The notes: generated from the sequence alone by a model not told the origin. 32,000 bases of DNA from Candidatus Nitrosopumilus koreensis AR1 (GCF_000299365.1 NC_018655.1:1170001-1202000); one strand, 5' to 3'. Shown: positions 3,842-32,000, counted from the stretch's first letter. Program-made: numbers and translations.

Positions 3842-5947
3842 TCACATCAATTGAATTAGGAGATTTCTTGGCGCATTCTGAAACAAAACTAGATTTTGAT
3901 AATGGAGTTACAGTTTTTGTAGGCCATAACGGTGCAGGAAAATCAAGCATAATAGATGCAATCACATTTGCATTATTTGGTCAGCATACAAGAAAATCAA
4001 ACAAAGGTCTAATCAAACGAAACGCAACACAGGGATTTGCCAAAATAAGCTTTTCAGTAAACGGAAGAATTTTTGAAGCTGTAAGAAAGATTGACAGTAA
4101 GGGGGCACTTTCTGCAAAATTCACAGAAATAGTTGACAATAAAAGAGTAGAGATAGCAGCAGGAGAAAGAAAGCAATTTGGCGAATCAATGACACAAGAG
4201 ATTGAAAAAGTAATAGGTCTTGATTTTGAAAAACTAAAAGTAGCATCAATTGTTCAACAAGGAGAACTTAATGCAATAATCAATGCAAAACCAAAAGAAT
4301 TCAAGGAGTTGTTAAATGCAATAATAGGAATCGACAAGCTTGATGTAGCTTCAGAATCTATGAAGATAGTAAACAAAGAATTTCGTGAAAATATTAAAAG
4401 AAAAATAGGGTATGATGACACACACATAGAAATTTTATCAAGAGACTTGGAAATGTATCAAAAAGAGATCAAAGAGTCAGAACCACAAAAAAATCAGTTA
4501 CAATCAAAACAAGAGACATTACAAAATGAAGTCAAAAATTTAAGAGAGGAAGTGGAGGCAGAAGCCCCAAAAATTGACAAAATCAACCAACTGGAATTAC
4601 GAAAAAAAGAATTAATCGAATATGCAAAAGGTGCAATTCATGAAATTCAACATGAAATTAGTGAAAATGAGCGTAAAATACACGATTGTGAGGCATGTTT
4701 TGAGCCTGCAAGCCTAAAAGGAGATTTAGAATCAAAAATTCAAAAAATAGAGCAAGCAGTAGAAGAGACTTTAAAAAAAGTTCAAGATATGAGGAACCAG
4801 ACCGCTTCTCTTAAAGAAAAACAAATTCTTGCATCAAAACTTCAGTTAAAAGACAACAAATGCCCAGTTTGTGATTCCAGTGTAGAAAAATTAAAACCGA
4901 TATTCCAAGAAGACCATCTAAAACAAGAATTAATGTCATTAGAAGAGCAGATTATTAGAAAAGAAGAAGAACATCAAATGTACAATCAAAAAAGAAAAGA
5001 GTTTTCTGAAAAATTACAAGCTGCAAGAGATGCAGAAGCCACGCTTAGAGCACATTCCATAACTTCAAAAGACCAACTAGAAAAAATTCAAGAGAATGTA
5101 AGAATCAAAAGACAAAATATCCAAAAAATTCCAGTGGTGAACAGCGGGAATTTGATTGAAATCTCACAGATTGATTCTCATGCAAAAACAATTTTTGAGA
5201 ACATATCAAAATTAGAATCAGAGACCAATGGTTTTGATGAGCAAGAATTTTTGAATCTAAAAAAATTAGTTAATCAAAAACAGATGGAATTGTCAAGTGT
5301 TGATCAACAGATAGGGGCAATACTAGAGAAAATATCAAAAGGAAAAGAACAAATTAGAATTATTGAAAACGCGATTTCTGAACTGCATGTTGTTAAAGAA
5401 TATGTAACAAATCTTGCTGAAATTCAAAATAATATTTTTAGTAGAGATGGTCCTGTTGCTACAAGTCTAAGATCATGGGCATTAAATGCAATTTCAGCCA
5501 AGGCATCAGAATATCTTGCATTACTTAATACAAAAATTCAAAGAATCCAATTGACAGAAAAAGCTAGAGATATTTCAATTAACAGAAAAAGCTAGAGATA
5601 TTTCAATTATTTGTAATTCAAAAACAGAAGAGTTAGATTTAGAGTCGTTGAGCGGAGGTGAAAAAGTCAGTGTTGCATTAGCCTTAAGATTAGGCATGGC
5701 AAGTCTCCTAGGAGCATCAAACCTTAACTTGATGATACTAGATGAACCTACAACACATCTTGATGCAGAAAGAAAAAAATCTCTAGTAGGAGTATTGTCT
5801 CAACTATCAAATATTTCAAATTCAGAAACGCCCATGCAATTTATCATAATTACGCATGATTCAGAGATTTTCGAGGATTCTACAGTTGAGCAAATTTACA
5901 AATTCGAGTCATCTGAACAAGGTAGCAAAGTGTCATTATTGAATTAG
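3838..5947 (+). pseudogene. rad50: Rad50 SMC-like ATPase gene, interrupted by a 28-bp tandem duplication that shifts the frame before the signature motif
   Basis: ATG 3838 overlaps the mre11 stop (ATGA). The ORF has Walker A GHNGAGKSS, a long Glu/Lys-rich coiled coil and the zinc hook CPVC (4861-4872). It ends at TAG 5593-5595 inside the second repeat copy. The frame-2 continuation (ORF track 5648-5947) carries the signature LSGGE, Walker B LMILDEP and ITHD. Deleting one 28-bp copy restores ...TEKARDISIICNSKTEELDLESLSGGEKV... Confidence 0.85.
5554..5609 (+). repeat. Perfect tandem duplication, 2 x 28 bp (acagaaaaagctagagatatttcaatta)
   Basis: 5554-5581 and 5582-5609 are identical by direct reading. 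The flanking bases differ (5553 g vs 5581 a; 5610 t vs 5582 a). 28 is not a multiple of 3. Confidence 0.95.
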
Positions 5948-5956
5948 TTTTAAGAA

Positions 5957-7222
5957 TTATTCTACGTGAACTATTCCAGTCATCCAAGGATGAACCATGC
6001 AGAAGTAATCATAAGTTCCAGGTTTTTCAAATGTGAATTCAAAAGTAGCACCAGACAGGAACAATCCAGAATCAAACATTCCAGTAGCACCTGCATTAAC
6101 ATTTCCGCTTGTCACAGTGTGTGCAGCAGAATCATCATTACTCCAAATGATTGTTGAATCAACTGGCACAGTTGCTTCATAAGGCAAATAGCATTCGTTA
6201 GTTTCATTGCATCCTGGAGCCCCAGACCCTTCAGGAATTGAAATAGTCAAAGATATTGGCAAATCAGACTGAGATTCAGGTAATTCTCTAGGTTCTGCAG
6301 TAGGTTCATCCATTAATTCCTCTGTTGGTTCAATTACAATCATTTCAGAGACTTCATTAACAATGACTTTACCAGTCATCCAAGGATGAACCATGCAGAA
6401 GTAATCATAAGTTCCAGGTTTTTCAAATGTGAATTCAAAAGTTTCACCTGCCATAAACAAACTTGAATCAAAGACTCCAGTTGCACCATCTTGTATATTG
6501 CCACTAGTTACTGTATGAGCAGCCGTGTCAACATTATTCCATTGAACAGCATCCCCAATGAAAATTGTAATTGTATGGGGCAAGTAACATTCGTTTGTCT
6601 CTTCACATCCAGGACCGCCAGAGCCTTGTGTAATTTCAACCACATGTTTTTGTGGTGGTGCAGGAACTGCAGAGGTCACCTCACCTAACACTAGAGTATC
6701 AGGTTCTTCAACAATTTTTGATTTAGGGGTGACTGTCAGCACATACTCACTGGTTATTGGAGTAGCAACATCTTTGCCATGCCCCAGACCAGTAACTAGA
6801 ATTTTGATTGTAACATCAGAATTGCCAAGCACACTTGTTTTGTGAACAGGGAATAATTCAATTGCATATCCATCATCGTCAACACTTGTATGTCTATGAG
6901 ATTCCTCATGGAGGATTTCATTCCCATCTTGGGTTGCAGATATTGTATAATAGACATGGTTTACAATTTGACCATCATCTCCGATAAATTCAGATTCAAT
7001 TTCTAAAATTTCACCTTCAACTGCAGAAATAGGCAAAAGTTGTGGATTTACAAGGATTTCAGTAACTTCAACTTCCATGCTGGGTGTGACAATGGGCATA
7101 TTATTCTCAACCACTCTTGGCTCAATAATTTCATCTGGAGACATTGCGATAAATCCAATTGATATTGCTGCCAATACTCCAACTGCAGTTATAATTCCAT
7201 AAGAAAAGTTCATCTCATCCAC
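5957..7222 (-). CDS. Membrane-anchored blue-copper protein with two plastocyanin/cupredoxin domains
   Basis: Type-1 Cu ligand pattern occurs twice (AAHTVTSG ... YDYFCMVHPWMTG). N-terminal hydrophobic anchor (GIITAVGVLAAISIGFIAM). The ORF-track start 7222 is GTG; ATG at 7213 (MNFSYG...) is more likely and lies 1 nt after the upstream HEAT gene stop. Confidence 0.85.
   Translation of the reverse strand: MDEMNFSYGIITAVGVLAAISIGFIAMSPDEIIEPRVVENNMPIVTPSMEVEVTEILVNPQLLPISAVEGEILEIESEFIGDDGQIVNHVYYTISATQDGNEILHEESHRHTSVDDDGYAIELFPVHKTSVLGNSDVTIKILVTGLGHGKDVATPITSEYVLTVTPKSKIVEEPDTLVLGEVTSAVPAPPQKHVVEITQGSGGPGCEETNECYLPHTITIFIGDAVQWNNVDTAAHTVTSGNIQDGATGVFDSSLFMAGETFEFTFEKPGTYDYFCMVHPWMTGKVIVNEVSEMIVIEPTEELMDEPTAEPRELPESQSDLPISLTISIPEGSGAPGCNETNECYLPYEATVPVDSTIIWSNDDSAAHTVTSGNVNAGATGMFDSGLFLSGATFEFTFEKPGTYDYFCMVHPWMTGIVHVE
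5976..6046 (-). repeat. Intragenic direct repeat, copy 1 (71 bp, 100% identical to 6372-6442)
   Basis: ccagtcatccaaggatgaaccatgcagaagtaatcataagttccaggtttttcaaatgtgaattcaaaagt was read at both positions. It encodes TFEFTFEKPGTYDYFCMVHPWMTG in both cupredoxin domains. Confidence 0.95.
6372..6442 (-). repeat. Intragenic direct repeat, copy 2 (71 bp)
   Basis: Identical to 5976-6046; the offset is 396 bp (in frame). Confidence 0.95.
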
Positions 7223-13963: not shown

Positions 13964-14686
13964 CTAGAACAAAGATTTTGCTTTTGTCAACTCCATCTTA
14001 ATAGAGTCAATTTTTGCATCAATCATATCAGACGCATCACCATTTTTTATCATGTTTCGAAGATCTACACGTAACATCAATTCTATTTTCTCCATCAGAG
14101 GGCGGTCTTTTTGTGCAATAGCACTTTCAACATACTCATAATTTTCTAAGTATGCATTTGTTGCAAGTGAGAAGGCAGTGTCCTTTTCACCATTTCTATA
14201 ATTTATTGACACATCATCTAGGATTTTTTCTATATTATTGATTATGTCTAGCACCTGACTTTGTTCGGTAATTGAAGTGCCCATCATGTTTCCCATCATT
14301 CCAGAGCCCATCATATGACTGTCCATCATCATATCTAGCATCCGTTGTTGGTATTGAGGATCATTCATCATGGTGTTCATCATTGGTTGCATCATCATGT
14401 TCATGTGTTGTTGGTTATTCATCATCATGTTGTGCATCTGTGTCATAGCTTGCGGATCATTCATCATAGTACTCATCCATTGATTCATAGCATCAGGGTT
14501 ATTCATCATGGTTTGATGCCATTGGTTCATCATATTAGGATCATTCATCATTTGTTGCATTTGTTGAGGTGTCATTTGCATGAAATTATTTTGAGGTGTT
14601 GAGGTTTGCATCATGGCATAACCTATACCAATTCCAGCAAAGAATACTCCTACTGCAATTCCAATCATCACGTATTGGCTAACCAT
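13964..14686 (-). CDS. Membrane-anchored, extremely Met/Asn/Gln-rich protein with a helical C-terminal domain
   Basis: 240 aa with an N-terminal TM (VMIGIAVGVFFAGIGIGYA). A 112-residue segment follows in which I count 38 Met, with repeated MMNDPxxMxQ units. The C-terminal part is an ordinary-composition helical domain. Confidence 0.7.
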   Translation of the reverse strand: MVSQYVMIGIAVGVFFAGIGIGYAMMQTSTPQNNFMQMTPQQMQQMMNDPNMMNQWHQTMMNNPDAMNQWMSTMMNDPQAMTQMHNMMMNNQQHMNMMMQPMMNTMMNDPQYQQRMLDMMMDSHMMGSGMMGNMMGTSITEQSQVLDIINNIEKILDDVSINYRNGEKDTAFSLATNAYLENYEYVESAIAQKDRPLMEKIELMLRVDLRNMIKNGDASDMIDAKIDSIKMELTKAKSLF

Positions 14687-16449: not shown

Positions 16450-16977
16450 TCAAGATTCTTGTTCTTTGATAACATTTAATGTCATACTTGAAACAATATG
16501 AGGTATTTTTCTAATTGCTTTGGTAATAACATTGTCTAGTATTTCATCACTAGACGATTCAACAATACAAATAACATCATACAGTCCAAAAACAACATCA
16601 GCTTCTTTTACTTCAGGAATATGGCTCAGATCTTTCAGTATTGGATATTCTTCTCCTTTTTCACAATGAATAACGACGTAAGCTTTGACAATATTTTGTC
16701 CAAGCATTGCTCCAATTAGTTTATCAGATGGTTGAAACAGTTCTCCTGATTCTGAACGAATTAAGGTCATGGTAGAACGAATTTTTGGCATTTTACGAAT
16801 TTGTTTAGTAACTACTTGTTGAATTTTCTCTTCAGAGTCCAATTCAATTTGTGCAACAATGTCATAAAGGCCAAATGTACCATGAACACCTTTTATCCCT
16901 TCCATGTTTTTTAGGGATGAAATGATCTCTTTTTCTGAGCCCAAATTACAATTCATTAAGACATACGCTTTTGCCAT
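16450..16977 (-). CDS. Tandem Lrp/AsnC-type ligand-binding (RAM) domain protein without an HTH
   Basis: 175 aa made of two roughly 75-aa repeats (AYVLMNC..GSEKEI...V.G.FGLYDIVAQIE...IRKMPKIRSTMTL and AYVVIHC.KGEE....VVFGLYDVICIVE...IRKIPHIVSSMTL). GGAG lies 9 nt before the ATG. Confidence 0.7.
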   Translation of the reverse strand: MAKAYVLMNCNLGSEKEIISSLKNMEGIKGVHGTFGLYDIVAQIELDSEEKIQQVVTKQIRKMPKIRSTMTLIRSESGELFQPSDKLIGAMLGQNIVKAYVVIHCEKGEEYPILKDLSHIPEVKEADVVFGLYDVICIVESSSDEILDNVITKAIRKIPHIVSSMTLNVIKEQES

Positions 16978-17149: not shown

Positions 17150-17162
17150 TGAACATTGTTAA
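17150..17162. promoter_or_regulatory. Near-copy (12/13) of the island palindrome: TGAACATTGTTAA
   Basis: Read directly. It is followed by GTATGCCATAAATAG, which resembles the flanks of the other copies, but no ORF longer than 8 codons follows. Confidence 0.4.
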
Positions 17163-17245
17163 GTATGCCATAAATAGAAAACAAAAAACAGGTATGTTTT
17201 GATGAAATTCTTACATCAAAATGAATAAAACATCAGCATTCCAGA

Positions 17246-17329
17246 TTATTTTGTAACCATTACCAATGTTGCAATTATACCAAGTATTGCAATGAAAATC
17301 AATGTGTTTCGTATGTAGGATTTTCTCAT
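17246..17329 (-). CDS. Possible 27-aa single-pass membrane micro-protein
   Basis: MRKSYIRNTLIFIAILGIIATLVMVTK*. It starts 5 nt after the stop of the C2H2 ORF on the same strand. Confidence 0.25.
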   Translation of the reverse strand: MRKSYIRNTLIFIAILGIIATLVMVTK

Positions 17330-17334
17330 TAATG

Positions 17335-17499
17335 TTATTTTTCACGCTTTGGCTTTGAATGAGCCTTTATCATGTGTTTTTTTGTTCTTTCTGGATCGGT
17401 AAATTCCATATCGCAAATGGTGCATTTGTTAGAAAACGTTGTTTCTCTTTTCAGGATACTTTTTAGCTTATTTTTGTTAAAGGGTAATCGAGATTTCAT
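17335..17499 (-). CDS. 54-aa canonical C2H2 zinc-finger protein
   Basis: MKSRLPFNKNKLKSILKRETTFSNKCTICDMEFTDPERTKKHMIKAHSKPKREK*, i.e. C-x2-C-x12-H-x4-H. Not in the ORF track. Its ATG lies 35 nt from the palindrome at 17535-17547, with TTATAA in between. Confidence 0.55.
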   Translation of the reverse strand: MKSRLPFNKNKLKSILKRETTFSNKCTICDMEFTDPERTKKHMIKAHSKPKREK

Positions 17500-17534
17500 A
17501 ACAAATACAGAAATCAGAGATTATAAGGCATTGC

Positions 17535-17547
17535 TTAACATTGTTAA
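17535..17547. promoter_or_regulatory. Palindromic operator-like site TTAACATTGTTAA (copy 1)
   Basis: Exact 13-bp palindrome in the divergent region between the C2H2 ORF (minus) and the wHTH gene (plus). Confidence 0.6.
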
Positions 17548-17598
17548 TTATAACTACTAGGAACAATAGTTAAAGTGTCATTTATTCAATAGTACATA

Positions 17599-17931
17599 GT
17601 GGCCGAGCCAAAAAAATATAGAGATAGAATCTATATTGTAAAAGACATTATTCTTACACTTTCAGAATATGGGGAGTTGAATCAAACTGCATTGTTTAGT
17701 TTTTGTGGATTAAATATTTCAAAGCATAAACAAATTTTAGATAATCTAGAACAAAATGACATCATTCAACGAACAGAGAAAGTAGAAGGAAAAAGAGCTG
17801 TTACGATTTTTAAGGTCACTCCAAAAGGAATGAATTTTTGCCATGAAATATTGGAACCATATGAAAAACTATTTCCAAGAAGTGGTAAATCCTCGGATTC
17901 ATTAAATTTTGGATGCTTATTCTTCGTCTAG
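17599..17931 (+). CDS. Small winged-helix DNA-binding protein (archaeal wHTH type)
   Basis: 110 aa (GTG start). RDRIYIVKDIILTLSEYGELNQTALFSFCGLNISKHKQILDNLEQNDIIQRTEKVEGKRAVTIFKVTPKG has the helix-turn-helix plus beta-wing layout of small archaeal wHTH regulators. The family assignment is by pattern only. Confidence 0.55.
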   Translation: MAEPKKYRDRIYIVKDIILTLSEYGELNQTALFSFCGLNISKHKQILDNLEQNDIIQRTEKVEGKRAVTIFKVTPKGMNFCHEILEPYEKLFPRSGKSSDSLNFGCLFFV

Positions 17932-18285
17932 GTGATATTTTGAGGAGATGGCCTTATCCAAGTTTTCTCTTTTTTCCAGATAATTACAATATCGTTTGTT
18001 CCAGGAACTAAGAGATTTGAATTGCCGTATACCTGCAGATAACCAAACACCAGATGTGACCAGAACGACGGTTAACAAAATTATCAGCAATAATGCAAAA
18101 TCATACTCACTTTCAACCAAATGCAGGAATTTTGGATGAGTGACAAGATATAATGAAATTCCTATTGCAAGAGGGGCTAAAATCAGAGCAGATAATGAAA
18201 CACCAAGCATTAAATTTTTGAGTTGTTGAATTTTTTCAATAAAAAGATCCATAGAACTTAAAATATCGTTTCCAAAATCAGACAA
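17917..18285 (-). CDS. Hypothetical membrane protein (two predicted TM helices)
   Basis: 122-aa ORF (TTG start; an internal ATG is possible). Hydrophobic segments LGVSLSALILAPLAIGISLYLV and FALLLIILLTVVLVTSGVWL. It converges on and overlaps the wHTH 3' end by 15 nt. Confidence 0.45.
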   Translation of the reverse strand: MSDFGNDILSSMDLFIEKIQQLKNLMLGVSLSALILAPLAIGISLYLVTHPKFLHLVESEYDFALLLIILLTVVLVTSGVWLSAGIRQFKSLSSWNKRYCNYLEKRENLDKAISSKYHLDEE

Positions 18286-18397
18286 ACTTGTATACCTCTA
18301 ATGAACCAAAATTATTTCTTTTAATATATTTTTGATGAATTTTAATTGAGATATCAAAAATGTTTTGATTTTTCACTGTTTCTGTTGTGTATGTGTA

Positions 18398-18425
18398 GTA
18401 TTTAGGAAATACTTAACAATGTTAA
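18398..18425. repeat. Left arm of a 28-nt inverted repeat (contains palindrome copy 2, 18413-18425)
   Basis: The reverse complement ttaacattgttaagtatttcctaaatac matches 18765-18792 (ttaacattgttaagcatttcctaaatat) at 26/28 positions. Confidence 0.85.
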
Positions 18426-18460
18426 TTTAATTTTATTAGAAATTCATCATAATTGATTTT

Positions 18461-18565
18461 ATGACTGAGGATAATGATTTAGAGGAAGAAAATCTTGCAA
18501 CCAAGAAAAATAAAGACTGGTGGAGATTAGAAAAATTTCAGATAGGTAGGAAAAGGTTTTCATAA
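18461..18565 (+). CDS. Possible 34-aa charged micro-protein
   Basis: ATG 18461 lies 35 nt after palindrome copy 2, with TTTTATTA in between. MTEDNDLEEENLATKKNKDWWRLEKFQIGRKRFS*. It stops 2 nt before the next ATG. Confidence 0.3.
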   Translation: MTEDNDLEEENLATKKNKDWWRLEKFQIGRKRFS

Positions 18566-18567
18566 AC

Positions 18568-18768
18568 ATGGCATTTTCATGTAAAGGCATATGCGACTCA
18601 TTAATGGAAGAACCAGTTCCCAGCGGTTTACGCTACAAACTCGGGCAGAAGAGATGCACATTATGTGGTATTTTTGTTAAAACTACGAATCTAAGATGTC
18701 CTTGTTGTAATGCTCGCTTACGAACAAGATCAAGAAACAAAAAACATTCTAGAAAGCGTATCCATTAA
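18568..18768 (+). CDS. Small Cys-rich zinc-ribbon protein with a basic tail
   Basis: 66 aa with CTLC...CPCC knuckles and the C-terminal RLRTRSRNKKHSRKRIH. Its TAA stop lies inside palindrome copy 3. Confidence 0.5.
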   Translation: MAFSCKGICDSLMEEPVPSGLRYKLGQKRCTLCGIFVKTTNLRCPCCNARLRTRSRNKKHSRKRIH

Positions 18769-18792
18769 CATTGTTAAGCATTTCCTAAATAT
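18765..18792. repeat. Right arm of the 28-nt inverted repeat (contains palindrome copy 3, 18765-18777)
   Basis: ttaacattgttaagcatttcctaaatat, see the left arm. A 24-codon ORF (ATG 18814, MQSKLLQKGNNDNCCSILVFIYCH*) starts 36 nt after the palindrome. Confidence 0.85.
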
Positions 18793-18938
18793 CAAAAAAA
18801 TGAATCATAATTAATGCAGAGCAAACTACTCCAAAAAGGAAATAATGACAACTGTTGTTCTATCCTAGTTTTCATTTACTGCCATTAGACACGGTAATTT
18901 CCTTTTTGCTCCTGCAGTACCATTTATCTAAATTCGGG

Positions 18939-18951
18939 TTAACAATGTTAA
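18939..18951. promoter_or_regulatory. Palindromic site TTAACAATGTTAA (copy 4; extended GTTAACAATGTTAAC)
   Basis: Exact copy, 38 nt upstream of the DUF1059-like ATG, with GTATATTA in between. Confidence 0.6.
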
Positions 18952-18989
18952 CTGAAGTATATTACATACAAATCTGATAAAAATACAAA

Positions 18990-19154
18990 ATGGTAAAACT
19001 CAAGTGTGTTGATTATGGATTTGAATGTGATTTTGTAGCAGAGGGAGAGATGCAACAAGTAATTGATGAATTTGGACATCATACTGATGAAGAACACGGA
19101 ATTGATTATTCCAAAGAAGCTTTGATGCAATTTATCTTGAGAAAAACCACGTAA
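18990..19154 (+). CDS. DUF1059-like small metal-binding protein
   Basis: 54 aa, MVKLKCVDYGFECDFVAEGEMQQVIDEFGHHTDEEHGIDYSKEALMQFILRKTT*. The pattern M-x-[KF]-x-C-x-D-x-G-x-x-C-x-F ... H-x4-5-H-G is typical of that family. It replaces the antisense ORF-track entry 18948-19157. Confidence 0.6.
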   Translation: MVKLKCVDYGFECDFVAEGEMQQVIDEFGHHTDEEHGIDYSKEALMQFILRKTT

Positions 19155-19166
19155 CACAAATCAAGG

Positions 19167-19826
19167 ATGAATTTAATGATTGAATTTTTTGACCATAATC
19201 TAGTATTACAGTTCCTAGATTCTGTTTTTCTTCAAGGAGATGGAGGCATATTTGGATTTATGGGTAAAGGTCGAGATGCATTAGGTAGTGATGATCCCAT
19301 AGTAAAGGGGCTTATTCCAACATTATTTGGAGTGACTTTATTTGGAATTTTATTGAATTTCTTCAATTCTGCAGTTAGAAAGAAGATGGTTGATCAAACA
19401 AAACTAAAACGAATAATGAAGGAGACTCGTAGATGGCAAAAAGAAAGAATGGCTGCAATGCGAGCAAAAGATACTGCAAAAACAGCTGAACTAAACAAGA
19501 AATCTGCATACATGAACAAGATGTCAATGGAGATGATGCAGATGAATATGAGACCGATGATGATTACGTTCGTTCCTTTGATTTTGATTTTTTATTTGGT
19601 TTTGCCTCAATTATTTGCCCACACAGTTGCATTAAGTCCAATACCACTAAATGTGATTCCAGGTGATTTTTTTCACCTAACATGTACTGCTGAACAAGTA
19701 GCAGATCCAGACAATGTCTGCACCCAAGAAAATGCGTTATATCTTTGGGCATGGTATTTCCTTTCATCCATTGCATTTAGTGGAATAATTATGAAATTAA
19801 CCAAAACATCAATGGGGGCAGATTAA
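19167..19826 (+). CDS. DUF106 / EMC3-TMCO1-like integral membrane protein (archaeal YidC/Oxa1-like insertase candidate)
   Basis: 219 aa. A TM helix is followed by a long basic coiled region (KKMVDQTKLKRIMKETRRWQKERMAAMRAKDTAKTAELNKK), a Met-rich segment (MNKMSMEMMQMNMRPMM) and further TM helices. This is the characteristic DUF106 layout. Confidence 0.6.
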   Translation: MNLMIEFFDHNLVLQFLDSVFLQGDGGIFGFMGKGRDALGSDDPIVKGLIPTLFGVTLFGILLNFFNSAVRKKMVDQTKLKRIMKETRRWQKERMAAMRAKDTAKTAELNKKSAYMNKMSMEMMQMNMRPMMITFVPLILIFYLVLPQLFAHTVALSPIPLNVIPGDFFHLTCTAEQVADPDNVCTQENALYLWAWYFLSSIAFSGIIMKLTKTSMGAD

Positions 19827-19859
19827 AAATCTGAATCAAGTTCATAAACTTAAAAAAGA

Positions 19860-20015
19860 TTAATTATTATTTCTAAATGACCATTTTGTTTCTTCATGAG
19901 GCCTTACAAATTTTTCAGGAGAAACTTTACTATGATCACTTTTGATATGAGACATGTAATTTACAAGTGATGAGAAATTCTGATTGCATATTGGGCAGAC
20001 TTTTGTAAATCCCAT
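19860..20015 (-). CDS. 51-aa canonical C2H2 zinc-finger protein
   Basis: MGFTKVCPICNQNFSSLVNYMSHIKSDHSKVSPEKFVRPHEETKWSFRNNN*, i.e. C-x2-C-x12-H-x4-H. Not in the ORF track. Its ATG lies 35 nt from palindrome copy 5. Confidence 0.55.
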   Translation of the reverse strand: MGFTKVCPICNQNFSSLVNYMSHIKSDHSKVSPEKFVRPHEETKWSFRNNN

Positions 20016-20050
20016 AAGCATTATTGGAAAATATTTCTTTTAGAAGTTCC

Positions 20051-20063
20051 TTAACAATGTTAA
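20051..20063. promoter_or_regulatory. Palindromic site TTAACAATGTTAA (copy 5)
   Basis: Exact copy upstream of the minus-strand C2H2 ORF. Confidence 0.6.
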
Positions 20064-29936: not shown

Positions 29937-30674
29937 ATGACAATTAGATATGAAGCTAATCCTCCTAAAATTTTACCTAATGTAGATACAGACGAATCGA
30001 TAAAGAAATTCATTGAGAAGATAAAAAGTATTTCAAAAAAATGTGACGCAATTCATCTTACAGAAAATGTGTTAGGATATCAAAGAGTATCTCCATTAGA
30101 CGTAGGAAAAATAATAAGAAAAGAAATTCCAGATTTGCCAATAACAGTCAGTCTTAGAGTTAGAGATAAGACCGAAGAAGAAATTTCACAGTTTGTAGAA
30201 AAATGTATTGATATTAGTTTTTCAGGAATTCTGGTTTTGATGGGAGACCCCTCACAAACAGGTAAAACCGATTCAGGTCAAATTCCAAGTTTGACTGTAA
30301 AAAAATTAAGAGAAAAGAACATTGATTCAAAAATTGATTTGTACCTTTCAGTATCAAACAAACCAAATTTTTCAAAACTTGAAAAGAAACTTAATGCAAA
30401 ACCAAAAGGATTCATGACTCAAGTGGTACAAAACATACAGCAAGTACAAGACTTATCAGATAACCTAAAAGAATTTTCAGTTATTCCAATCATATTATTT
30501 CCCTCACAAAAAAATGAAAAATCTGCAAAGTTTTTGAATTTGGATTTAGAGTCATATAGTCAAGGATTTGAAGAATTGTTAAAAAAATCACATAAAATTA
30601 CAGGGGATATTCTAATTACATCTCCAAATGATTTTACAGGATTAAACGAGTTTTTGAGTAAAATAACTTTCTAA
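29937..30674 (+). CDS. Methylenetetrahydrofolate reductase-like (MetF-like) protein
   Basis: 245 aa. YEANPPK, IHLTENVLG, SLRVRDKTEEE...GILVLMGDP and KPKGFMTQVV parallel the conserved MTHFR blocks. Adjacent and convergent to metH. Confidence 0.55.
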   Translation: MTIRYEANPPKILPNVDTDESIKKFIEKIKSISKKCDAIHLTENVLGYQRVSPLDVGKIIRKEIPDLPITVSLRVRDKTEEEISQFVEKCIDISFSGILVLMGDPSQTGKTDSGQIPSLTVKKLREKNIDSKIDLYLSVSNKPNFSKLEKKLNAKPKGFMTQVVQNIQQVQDLSDNLKEFSVIPIILFPSQKNEKSAKFLNLDLESYSQGFEELLKKSHKITGDILITSPNDFTGLNEFLSKITF

Positions 30675-32000
30675 AGTACAAAGTATTGTGCTTTAGGATG
30701 ATGCACCACCATTGCTGCAGTAGATTGTTCAGGAATTATTTGACCTGATTCGGTTAATTCCATTCCAGATTTTTCAGGTTCCAAGAGTTTCCATACCAAA
30801 TTATGTTGCATTACATCAGGACAACTAGGAAAACCCCAAGAGTATCTCAATCCACCTTTATCTAAATTCAATTCAGATTTTATTTTTCGATTAATCCATT
30901 CAGCTAGTGCTTCTGCAACTTCAACTGCCAATCCATGAAGATAGTATGCATCAGTGTATTTGTCTTCTTGATTCCATTGTTCAATAATATCTGCAACTTT
31001 GTTTCCAACTGTGACTGCCTGAAATGCAACAACATCATCATCACCAAAATAATCAGTTAAACACAAGTGTTCAGGTTTAGTAGAACGAGGAAAATCAAAT
31101 TCTACATCATCACCATGAGGATTATCTACAAGTAATTTTCCATCTTTGTTATGGCATTTGAAATATCCATAAACCACTTCAGGTTCAAATAATTTTTCTC
31201 GAATAATTCTAATCTTCCATTGGTTAAGCAGTTGTTCATGATCTGCTTCTGATTCAGAACCTGCTTTACCCCTAAGACCCCAAGAAAGTTTGAAGAGTGA
31301 TTTTTTATCAATTAATTGCCATACTTCGTCCATCTTTATTTGATCTGATTTTAGACGAATTGGTTCACCGATAATTTTTGGAGTAGGGGCAGACACAGGT
31401 TTTATTTCACTTTTTGGAAGACTAGCAGGATCAACTTTTGCAGTGGATTTTTCTTTCCAGTTTTCTAATTTCTCCTTCCATTGTGATAAGAGTTTTGGTT
31501 TTTCATCAGAAATCAGAGCATCCATTGTTTTTAGTCCTTCAAACATTGTATTACAGTAAAAAACTCCGGACTCGTAGATTCCATCTTCTTTTGCAATTCG
31601 ATTAATGTAATTGCTGTTAATTGCTGCACCTCCACAAAGAATTGGGATGTTCATTTTGTTTTTTCTGGCATGCTCTACAAAGAATTGCATTTGTTTTGAA
31701 GTAGAAACTAACAATGCAGAAAGACCAACAGCATCAGGATTTACTTCGTCGATTTTTTCAATGAATTTTTGTAATGGAACCTGTTTTCCAAGATCATAAA
31801 CTGTGTAACCATTATTTTGGAAGATAGTTTTTACCAAATTCTTTCCAATGTCATGGACATCACCATATACAGTACCTAAAACAAGCTTGCCTTTGCTTGA
31901 TCCCTCTTCTTTGACAAGATACTTTTCCAATTCTCCAACCGATGCTTTCATGCATTCGGCAGATTTTAAAACAAATGGAAGAATTAATTCTCCTGCACCA
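30671..32000 (-). CDS. metH: Cobalamin-dependent methionine synthase, C-terminal part (B12-binding and AdoMet-activation domains); the 5' end lies outside the window
   Basis: B12-binding motifs DVHDIGKNLV (DxHxxG), SALLVSTS (SxL) and CGGAA (GG). The frame stays open upstream of the ORF-track Met to the window edge (GAGELILPFVLKSAECMKA...), matching the cap region of MetH. Confidence 0.85.
   Translation of the reverse strand, partial: GAGELILPFVLKSAECMKASVGELEKYLVKEEGSSKGKLVLGTVYGDVHDIGKNLVKTIFQNNGYTVYDLGKQVPLQKFIEKIDEVNPDAVGLSALLVSTSKQMQFFVEHARKNKMNIPILCGGAAINSNYINRIAKEDGIYESGVFYCNTMFEGLKTMDALISDEKPKLLSQWKEKLENWKEKSTAKVDPASLPKSEIKPVSAPTPKIIGEPIRLKSDQIKMDEVWQLIDKKSLFKLSWGLRGKAGSESEADHEQLLNQWKIRIIREKLFEPEVVYGYFKCHNKDGKLLVDNPHGDDVEFDFPRSTKPEHLCLTDYFGDDDVVAFQAVTVGNKVADIIEQWNQEDKYTDAYYLHGLAVEVAEALAEWINRKIKSELNLDKGGLRYSWGFPSCPDVMQHNLVWKLLEPEKSGMELTESGQIIPEQSTAAMVVHHPKAQYFVL

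Follow-up and report, generated by a model that had tools for sequence, protein, structure and literature searches.

A 13-bp palindrome at fixed distance from TATA boxes marks a predicted small regulon of ammonia-oxidizing archaea

The stretch of DNA analysed here, hereafter the window, comprises 32 kb of the Candidatus Nitrosopumilus koreensis AR1 genome. It contains a 3-kb island that encodes the 110-amino-acid (aa) winged-helix protein NKOR_07150 (hereafter wHTH), the two-helix membrane protein NKOR_07155, two C2H2-type zinc fingers (C2H2a and C2H2b), a 34-aa micro-protein, a 66-aa Zn ribbon, a DUF1059 protein and a DUF106 membrane protein, together with a structured non-coding RNA (Table 1). 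Between these genes the palindrome TTAACAWTGTTAA, whose core is TTAAC-N3-GTTAA, is repeated exactly. Here we establish the statistics of this motif, its fixed promoter geometry, its conservation across orders of ammonia-oxidizing archaea (AOA), its list of targets and the structure of the RNA.

Exact copies of TTAACAWTGTTAA start at positions 17535, 18413, 18765, 18939 and 20051. These five copies lie within 3 kb and compare with 0.009 expected per window from base composition, and no sixth exact copy occurs in the 32 kb. An earlier note on this DNA had pointed out both the five copies and their rarity, and both were borne out. Its description of their placement was also right, as all copies are intergenic, the one at 18765 overlapping the TAA stop codon of the 66-aa Zn-ribbon gene. 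Copies with one mismatch are found at 17150 (TGAAC...) and 10989 (TTCAC...), the second of which had been graded 11/13 and is really 12/13. The 10989 copy was considered as a member of the regulon and was not counted, because it has no TATA box at +9 and related loci do not conserve the sequence around it.

Table 1. Coordinates of palindromes, TATA boxes, genes and RNA in the island, in positions of the window.
Feature	Coordinates	Strand	Basis or remark
12/13 palindrome TGAACATTGTTAA	17150..17162		TAAATA (17171-17176, +) 8 nt on
C2H2-type zinc finger, 54 aa, paralogue a (C2H2a)	17335..17499	-	ATG 35 nt from palindrome
TATA box TTATAA, predicted C2H2a promoter	17521..17526	-	8 nt from palindrome
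Exact palindrome between divergent C2H2a and wHTH genes	17535..17547		about -64 from wHTH start in most Nitrosopumilus loci
Conserved box AATAGTTAAAGT, probable wHTH TATA region	17565..17576	+	upstream alignments; TTAAAG 29 nt before GTG
Winged-helix protein NKOR_07150, 110 aa, candidate regulator	17599..17931	+	100% identity to NKOR_07150
Two-helix membrane protein NKOR_07155, 122 aa	17917..18285	-	predicted to be driven from minus side of 18413 palindrome
Leader ORF, 32 aa, uncertain status	18278..18376	-	start about 36 nt from 18413 palindrome; 8-nt overlap with NKOR_07155 start
TATA box TAAATA, minus side of 18413 palindrome	18399..18404	-	8-nt spacing
Exact palindrome, predicted to serve two divergent promoters	18413..18425		kept at about +813 from wHTH start
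TATA box TATTAG, 34-aa/Zn-ribbon operon	18434..18439	+	8-nt spacing
Micro-protein, 34 aa, conserved ..DWWRLEKFQIGRRRF motif	18461..18565	+	kept as protein in 30 loci, start at 35 nt in 24
Zn ribbon, 66 aa, basic tail, second operon gene	18568..18768	+	synteny in related loci
Exact palindrome of predicted small-RNA promoter	18765..18777		overlaps Zn-ribbon stop codon
TATA box TAAATA, predicted small-RNA promoter	18786..18791	+	TAAATA (35) or TATATA (2) in all 37 RNA copies
Conserved structured non-coding RNA, about 104 nt	18814..18917	+	covariance model, 87 bits for window copy
Exact palindrome of predicted DUF1059 promoter	18939..18951		sequence match; position recurs in related loci
TATA box TATTAC, predicted DUF1059 promoter	18960..18965	+	8-nt spacing
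DUF1059 protein NKOR_07160, 54 aa	18990..19154	+	Pfam DUF1059 (PF06348) 27.2 bits vs cut-off 21.1
EMC3/TMCO1-like (DUF106) membrane protein, 219 aa	19167..19826	+	Pfam EMC3_TMCO1 E 1.3e-17
C2H2-type zinc finger, 51 aa, paralogue b (C2H2b)	19860..20015	-	homologues start at equivalent Met, 35 nt from palindrome
TATA box TAAAAG, predicted C2H2b promoter	20037..20042	-	8-nt spacing
Exact palindrome, predicted C2H2b promoter	20051..20063		plus side predicted to drive membrane-anchored cupredoxin in related genomes

The spacing between the palindrome and its TATA box is constant. At all six island copies a TATA-like hexamer starts exactly 8 nucleotides (nt) past the palindrome (TTATAA, TAAATA, TATTAG, TAAATA, TATTAC and TAAAAG; TAAATA also follows the 17150 copy), instead of at the 6–15 nt that had been described for an A/T box. 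Start codons lie 21–24 nt beyond these hexamers, and the gaps from exact copy to start codon reported before (35, 35, 36, 38 and 35 nt) are correct. The combined pattern of half-site and TATA box, WTGTTAA-N8-TWWWW, has seven matches in the window against 1.17 expected, all of them in the island. Since TATA boxes lie 8 nt off on both sides of the 18413 copy and, in related genomes, of the 20051 copy, these two sites are predicted to serve divergent promoters.

We then examined 80 loci around wHTH orthologues, one genome per species, which were fetched via an orthologue alignment and span Nitrosopumilus, Nitrosarchaeum, Nitrosotalea, Nitrososphaera, Nitrosocosmicus and Nitrosocaldus. In a logo built from 143 distinct oriented sites, position +9 is T in 142, position +4 is A-rich and the ATG falls at +36 to +38. 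Such a scan had been proposed in the earlier note, and on the related loci it returned this fixed start-codon spacing, with start codons about 27 nt after the T of the TATA box. What is kept between copies is the 13-mer and the TATA box, while the flanks are otherwise unconserved, and the TATA-proximal half-site is better conserved than the distal half. A T followed by WWWW at +9 on at least one side was found at 123 of 130 exact sites, compared with 4.7% per side at random.

Ordinary genes of the same genomes show a peak of TATA-like hexamers 28–31 nt ahead of the ATG. Transcripts without a leader are therefore usual here, and the regulon conforms to this, in support of the earlier suggestion of leaderless geometry: the spacing is that of leaderless or near-leaderless transcripts. 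As exactly 8 bp separate the site from the TATA box, the palindrome is centred at approximately -42 relative to the start codon or the start of transcription. The proposed siting just upstream of the TFB recognition element (BRE) and the TATA box was likewise supported, and the palindrome behaves as a predicted protein-binding site.

To assess the distribution of the motif we counted its exact copies in the 80 loci and found 133 in 1.16 Mb. Their positions recur at approximately -64, +813, +1167 and +1350 from the wHTH start. The 40 Nitrosopumilaceae loci contain 130 exact copies where 0.18 would be expected by chance in 597 kb; 124 of them lie within -2.5 to +3.5 kb of the wHTH gene (0.56/kb) and six outside this interval (0.016/kb). 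Contrary to what had been claimed, the regulon is thus not purely local, given the distant promoter-type exact copies that occur at about 0.016 per kb in related genomes.

The element is present at orthologous promoters in three orders whose loci range from 29 to 58% guanine-cytosine (GC) content, and it survives rearrangements of gene order. In Nitrososphaera, TTAAC[CG]TTGTTAA or GTAACCATGTTAA lies 60–74 nt before the wHTH start, with more TTAAC-N3-GTTAA copies downstream, and Nitrosocaldus has an exact copy at -72. The universal core of the locus is the wHTH gene converging on a gene for a two-helix membrane protein of the NKOR_07155 family, an arrangement found in 78 of the 80 loci. A cupredoxin gene precedes the membrane-protein gene on the same strand in Nitrososphaera and Nitrosotalea, apparently as one operon. 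The promoter of this pair reads TTAACNNNGTTAA-TCATnnCC-TAAATA in Nitrososphaera and N. evergladensis, and in Nitrosotalea it keeps the proximal half only (..CTTTGTTAA or ..CTTTGGTAA) at the same 8-nt spacing. The cupredoxin of Nitrosopumilus has been relocated behind a different palindrome-driven promoter, that on the plus side of the 20051-type site. In the AR1 window no cupredoxin gene stands next to the 20051 site, and a degenerate TATA is left on its plus side.

The search for a replacement palindrome in the Nitrosotalea loci found only unrelated conserved features. In L041, L048, L049, L052 and 11 other Nitrosotalea-type loci a 15-bp palindrome with no relation to the present motif, AGATTATATTAATCT, is conserved at a fixed position of about -1905 from the wHTH start. 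Runs of GGNCCNNNNGGNCC occur at approximately +1460 to +1570 in Nitrosotalea-type loci (L040-L080) and look like Gly-Pro-rich collagen-like repeats in the gene downstream of the cupredoxin. Beyond the AOA loci, a metagenome-wide scan for TTAACAWTGTTAA-N8-TA gave, among the matches listed, almost only single chance matches in unrelated contigs, and so did not delimit the regulon beyond the island. Three metagenome contigs (L123 at 5757-6241, L183 and L136) carry clusters of three to five TTAACRTTGTTAA copies; they have no similarity to AOA loci and lack the TATA geometry, L123 and L183 being about 42% GC and L136 29% GC, and the clusters may be the operator of another factor in another organism.

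Target families were defined by clustering the open reading frames (ORFs) that follow the motif in related loci. C2H2 genes are the most frequent palindrome neighbours, with 51 instances in 36 loci, 44 of them at 35 nt. Both AR1 proteins display the C-x2-C...H-x3-H pattern. By Pfam, C2H2a matches zf-C2H2_2 weakly (E 1.5e-4) and reaches 20.6 bits for zf-C2H2 against a cut-off of 25.2; C2H2b scores 23.3 bits for zf-C2H2 (same cut-off) and 21.2 for zf-met, exactly at its cut-off of 21.2. Comparison with its homologues points to ATG 20015 as the true start of C2H2b. Directly 3' of C2H2a and on the same strand lies a 27-aa hydrophobic ORF, MRKSYIRNTLIFIAILGIIATLVMVTK (17246-17329, minus strand), possibly a co-transcribed membrane micro-protein. 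The 34-aa family (..WWRLEKFQIGRRRF) precedes the Zn ribbon, whose Nitrososphaera homologue comes directly after a palindrome. Matches of the Zn ribbon, most of them to GATA-type fingers (AreA, GATA-1, GATA-3), were marginal and not significant, with E values of 0.2–0.9.

DUF1059 genes follow the palindrome in 31 loci at 33–40 nt, mostly 38–39, including rearranged loci such as L038. A sequence search of the PDB with the DUF1059 protein gave nothing significant. The DUF106 gene starts 12 nt after DUF1059 and is possibly co-transcribed with it; the adjacency of the two genes is frequent but not universal in related loci. The membrane protein NKOR_07155 has no Pfam or NCBIfam match. Its gene and the convergent wHTH gene share 15 nt at their 3' ends, as they do in N. 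evergladensis, and members of the NKOR_07155 family lie 30–33 nt after a palindrome in three loci. The 32-aa ORF in front of NKOR_07155 may be a leaderless leader peptide or no more than 5' untranslated region; related leader ORFs ending in ...EFVR occur in ten loci at 32–41 nt from the palindrome (38 in six), and the exact 32-aa sequence was absent from the protein collection.

Three further families complete the list of targets. Cupredoxin genes follow the palindrome in 24 related loci at 34–43 nt, mostly 35–37; their products match PF13473 (34.2 bits against 27) and carry the ligand motif C-x2-H-x4-M as YYCSIHPDM. A Cys-containing protein of about 150 aa follows in ten loci at 34–41 nt (35 in six), and the wHTH gene itself follows in 12 loci at 35–49 nt. 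Two observations were made outside the island. A 175-aa protein (16450-16977, minus strand), composed of two Lrp/AsnC ligand-binding (RAM) domains with no helix-turn-helix (HTH), neighbours the island in many Nitrosopumilus loci, and its homologue in L002 lies 37 nt after a palindrome. The 13-mer GGATCATTCATCA occurs at 14358, 14454 and 14538 (plus strand) with spacings of 84–96 nt, within a 240-aa ORF (13964-14686, minus strand), and looks like an internal protein repeat.

The region at 18814 had been read as a 24-aa Cys-rich ORF. This ORF is not conserved as a protein: reading frames that begin from the shared ATGCAGARGC vary in length, an internal conserved box falls in different frames across species, and the 24-aa peptide is absent from the protein collection. 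Given the lack of a conserved reading frame and the compensatory changes in its second helix, the region is an RNA, not a gene for a peptide, and the supposed ORF is the 5' end of the structured RNA. A covariance model found 37 copies in the related loci and the window, all in Nitrosopumilaceae. The 36 copies other than that of the window are in L001-L034, L079, L139 and L161, with two each in L011, L032 and L034. The RNA measures approximately 100–130 nt across copies. Its terminal helix of 10 bp is invariant, and it further contains a long-range second helix (GGAAA../..UUUCC) and two single-stranded boxes, CUACUCCA and CCUAGUUUUCAUUUACUGCC.UAGACAC, that are conserved. In the alignment, which was fitted to the covariance model and so favours the structure, 92.3% of cells pair, and helix 2 displays compensatory or double changes in seven of seven pairs. 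None of 500 shuffles reached the observed values, and slid controls pair only 40–61%. Furthermore, an independent per-sequence duplex search pointed to the same helix, and the window copy folds with z = -2.8.

All 37 copies of the RNA have the palindrome 35–37 nt upstream with an invariant proximal half, the whole palindrome being exact in 22, and in all of them TAAATA or TATATA stands at +9 and the 3' flank is T-rich. Rfam 15 gave no relevant match to the RNA at E values up to 5, the only match being a chance one to GHRLOS elsewhere in the region, and neither a tRNA nor a tmRNA was found at the RNA region. We considered a possible mRNA target. The only perfect 11-nt complement of a single-stranded box in the window, TTTTGGAGTAG (31376-31386, plus strand), lies antisense to a 426-aa gene (30671-31951); it is therefore probably a chance match and was rejected as a target. 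A further promoter-like sequence of the RNA type, GTATGCCA-TAAATA, is found at the 17150 copy; after it come a 9-bp hairpin and a T-run (17163-17262, plus strand), which run antisense to the end of the C2H2a operon on its 3' side. This site could yield a short transcript. The region downstream of it is unconserved in related loci, and we regard it as an orphan promoter-like site with a small hairpin.

Next, we aimed to identify a protein that might read the palindrome. The wHTH passes the Pfam threshold for HTH_45 (PF14947; 27.4 bits against 25.5) and barely that for MarR (24.7 against 24.6). PF14947 is precomputed for many of its orthologues, and UniRef names one of them 'ArnR1-like'. The AlphaFold2 (AF2) model, with a predicted local distance difference test (pLDDT) score of 81, consists of a long N-terminal helix, the winged helix, a C-terminal helix and a disordered tail. 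Its Foldseek neighbours are dimers of the MarR, PadR and Sso10a-2 type, with template-modelling (TM) scores of about 0.5–0.65 and 13–23% identity, and a sequence search of the PDB with the wHTH found nothing significant. The modelled fold would fit a dimer that reads the dyad. Orthologues are 53–86% identical across AOA, and the recognition helix is nearly invariant over the 80 loci, in parallel with the motif. Residues C36, H43 and C81 are invariant in an alignment of 14 Nitrosopumilus/Nitrosarchaeum sequences (A1), Cys36 and Cys81 are kept in nearly all orthologues, and no CxxC motif was seen in the wHTH alignments. The hydrophobic tail ...LGCLFF[VI] (17887-17931), disordered in the model, is confined to Nitrosopumilus/Nitrosarchaeum. 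One locus, L005, contains a second pair of wHTH and membrane-protein genes upstream of the main wHTH gene, this pair being co-oriented, which suggests a paralogous duplication of the module.

We tentatively propose, at a little less than even chance, that TTAACAWTGTTAA is the site of a dimeric wHTH factor, NKOR_07150, immediately upstream of the BRE and TATA box, and that it controls a small AOA-wide regulon which is probably activated. Each part of this proposal, namely binding by a protein, the wHTH as this protein and activation, is inferred from geometry and synteny. The bound dimer would touch TFB/TBP and so activate transcription, in both directions at two sites. In the window the outputs would be leaderless or near-leaderless mRNAs for the two C2H2 fingers, for the 34-aa protein with the Zn ribbon and for DUF1059, perhaps together with the DUF106 insertase-like gene, as well as the membrane protein NKOR_07155 and the structured RNA of about 104 nt; elsewhere they would include the membrane-anchored cupredoxin. 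The wHTH had been named as the regulator in the earlier note, and it is still the best candidate, being linked to the palindrome across Nitrosopumilaceae, Nitrososphaera and Nitrosocaldus. That it would be the only DNA binder of the island did not hold, as the C2H2 and Zn-ribbon proteins could bind as well. Activation is favoured over occlusion because the 8-bp phasing is strict and the TATA-proximal half is better conserved. This preference also leans on the analogy with Ptr2, TFB-RF1, SurR and TrmBL1: known archaeal activators bind directly upstream of the BRE at fixed phasing, as do Ptr2, TFB-RF1 and the upstream SurR and TrmBL1 sites.

Several observations weigh against this proposal. The link between the wHTH and the palindrome consists of co-localisation only, and no palindrome precedes the wHTH gene in N. 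evergladensis, in some Nitrosarchaeum and in all Nitrosotalea loci. Where there is one, its distance from the wHTH start varies from -53 to -117. The abutting TTATAA, from which autoregulation had been argued, is unconserved, and the conserved box AATAGTTAAAGT lies about 22 nt downstream; given the varying distance and the genomes without a copy, this argument fails. Recognition helix and motif do not co-vary over the 80 loci, because the helix is the same in lineages with the full and with the degenerate motif. Furthermore, the nearest named family includes chromatin proteins (the wHTH scores 26.3 bits for the NCBIfam Sso10a family, NF053610, below its cut-off of 60), and the regulon encodes other possible nucleic-acid binders, namely the C2H2 fingers and the weakly GATA-like Zn ribbon. 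Only about 8 bp separate the centres of the half-sites, a short distance for many MarR-type dimers. Finally, in the accessible part of the N. viennensis copper-limitation supplement the sole expression hint for copper is an increase of only +0.77 log2 for NVIE_021960, a putative cupredoxin whose orthology was assigned solely from synteny.

The same site and the same protein might act in repression, which we consider unlikely but a serious contender. Here the wHTH would block recruitment of TFB/TBP beside the BRE until a signal such as metal or thiol oxidation frees it. Most of the nearest structural neighbours (SarZ, OhrR, AbfR, MarR and PadR-type) are repressors that oxidation or a ligand releases, and the retention of Cys36 and Cys81 in nearly all orthologues would suit such a switch. 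Good TATA boxes (TAAATA) and a BRE-like A at +4 suggest that the promoters might fire unaided. However, the site lies wholly upstream of the BRE and TATA box at a strict 8-nt phasing that occlusion does not need, whereas archaeal repressors usually overlap the BRE/TATA or the start site, and the better-kept TATA-proximal half is what a protein-protein contact would leave.

A slightly less probable explanation is that the site is a real regulatory one but is read by another binder: a small zinc protein of the regulon acting in a feed-forward loop, or an unlinked factor. In that case the wHTH would be no more than a neighbour or target. The frequency of C2H2 genes as palindrome neighbours (51 instances), the basic tail and marginal GATA-like matches of the Zn ribbon and a wHTH promoter that is off the standard geometry are all consistent with this, and a single C2H2 finger of an archaeal virus does bind DNA (PMC3541406). 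A 2013 paper found no homologue of the viral finger protein AFV1p06 in Thaumarchaeota. In our loci, the wHTH gene is always present in Nitrososphaera and Nitrosocaldus, whereas no C2H2 gene was found near their palindromes. A monomeric single finger also fits a perfect 13-bp dyad poorly, and the Pfam scores of the zinc proteins are below or just at the family cut-offs.

AOA encode several TFB and TBP paralogues, so the palindrome might be an extended core-promoter element for a specialised paralogue, with the dyad arising from back-to-back divergent promoters. The strict coupling to TATA at 8 nt, the better conserved proximal half and the two divergent-promoter sites are in keeping with this idea. 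Yet the distal half is intact at promoters that face one direction, for example at the RNA promoter, where 22 of 37 copies are exact and the far half falls in a coding end. In addition, the element spans 9–21 bp upstream of the TATA box, while BRE contacts normally extend no further than about 7 bp upstream of it, and we regard the idea as highly improbable. A non-regulatory repeat, produced by local duplication of promoter cassettes or left as the scar of a mobile element, is barely credible: the copies do crowd into a single 3-kb island, and C2H2a and C2H2b are paralogues, but the copies have only the 13-mer and TATA box in common, not their flanks, and the same element recurs at orthologous promoters of three orders through rearrangements and shifts in GC content.

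AOA run nitrification on a copper-based electron-transport chain. The zinc theme of the earlier note did not gain support, as nothing that we examined points to zinc beyond the nature of the products. The conserved link to the cupredoxin and the cysteines at positions 36 and 81 in nearly all wHTH orthologues weakly suggest copper or redox as the signal, which is slightly better anchored. NVIE_001860, annotated as 'winged helix', was considered as the N. viennensis wHTH of the module and rejected, as the genes around it differ from the gene order in N. evergladensis. The N. viennensis copper-limitation study reports two motifs, both different from the palindrome. It is conceivable, if rather improbable, that the wHTH, the convergent membrane protein and the cupredoxin form an AOA-specific copper/redox sensing circuit that switches on second-tier regulators. 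In such a circuit the condition of the copper-based electron-transport chain would be signalled to the wHTH by the cupredoxin and the membrane protein, and the wHTH would then switch on the eukaryote-like C2H2 and GATA-like zinc proteins and the small RNA via the palindrome. If true, all ammonia-oxidizing archaea would share this regulatory cascade.

In the searchable literature we found no description of the motif string or of the regulon, in line with what had been supposed. To our knowledge very few AOA regulons have been defined, and none turned up in this literature. A transcription factor site with its regulon is a known kind of system; the regulon described here is new and deeply conserved. 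It supplies a precise cis-element, a candidate factor and a clear promoter architecture, as well as a list of conserved targets, among them a dedicated cupredoxin, a new small RNA and micro-proteins that the original annotation had missed. Our analysis also corrects how the region is annotated, as one supposed micro-ORF is an RNA, and the regulon is experimentally tractable.

Several known systems resemble parts of this one. The MarR/PadR-type regulators (OhrR, SarZ, AbfR, LmrR, Rv3488) are the best structural matches of the wHTH, with a borderline Pfam MarR score and cysteines like those of thiol sensors. They differ by their low identity and larger size, by operators of usually 16–20 bp compared with 13 bp here and by a site over the promoter, whereas ours is upstream of it. 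With the HTH_45/ArnR1-like/Sso10a group (PF14947) the wHTH shares the HTH_45 match, and Sso10a-2 is among its structural matches. In contrast to ArnR and ArnR1, which have a fused C-terminal transmembrane/sensor domain, the wHTH has none and is accompanied by a separate convergent two-helix membrane protein; Sso10a proteins have a long coiled coil, whereas the C-terminal helix of the wHTH is short in the model and its NCBIfam score is well below the family cut-off.

SurR of Pyrococcus furiosus is likewise a small archaeal winged helix that reads a short palindrome with a 3-nt spacer beside a divergent target gene. It is redox-switched and acts through the position of its site relative to the BRE and TATA box. 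The SurR site is GTT-N3-AAC, while the motif here has the inverse arrangement, AAC-N3-GTT within TTAAC-N3-GTTAA. The wHTH also lacks the CxxC of SurR, having instead two conserved cysteines 45 residues apart, and no sequence relation to solved structures was detected. The activator systems of Ptr2 (Methanocaldococcus), TFB-RF1 (Pyrococcus) and the upstream TrmBL1 and SurR sites differ from ours in sequence, protein family and phylum (here Nitrososphaeria), and our system is known from sequence alone. Nevertheless, they are alike in architecture: on established knowledge, each has a short dyad that abuts the BRE at fixed TATA phasing, divergent promoters are possible and the regulator gene lies beside its targets.

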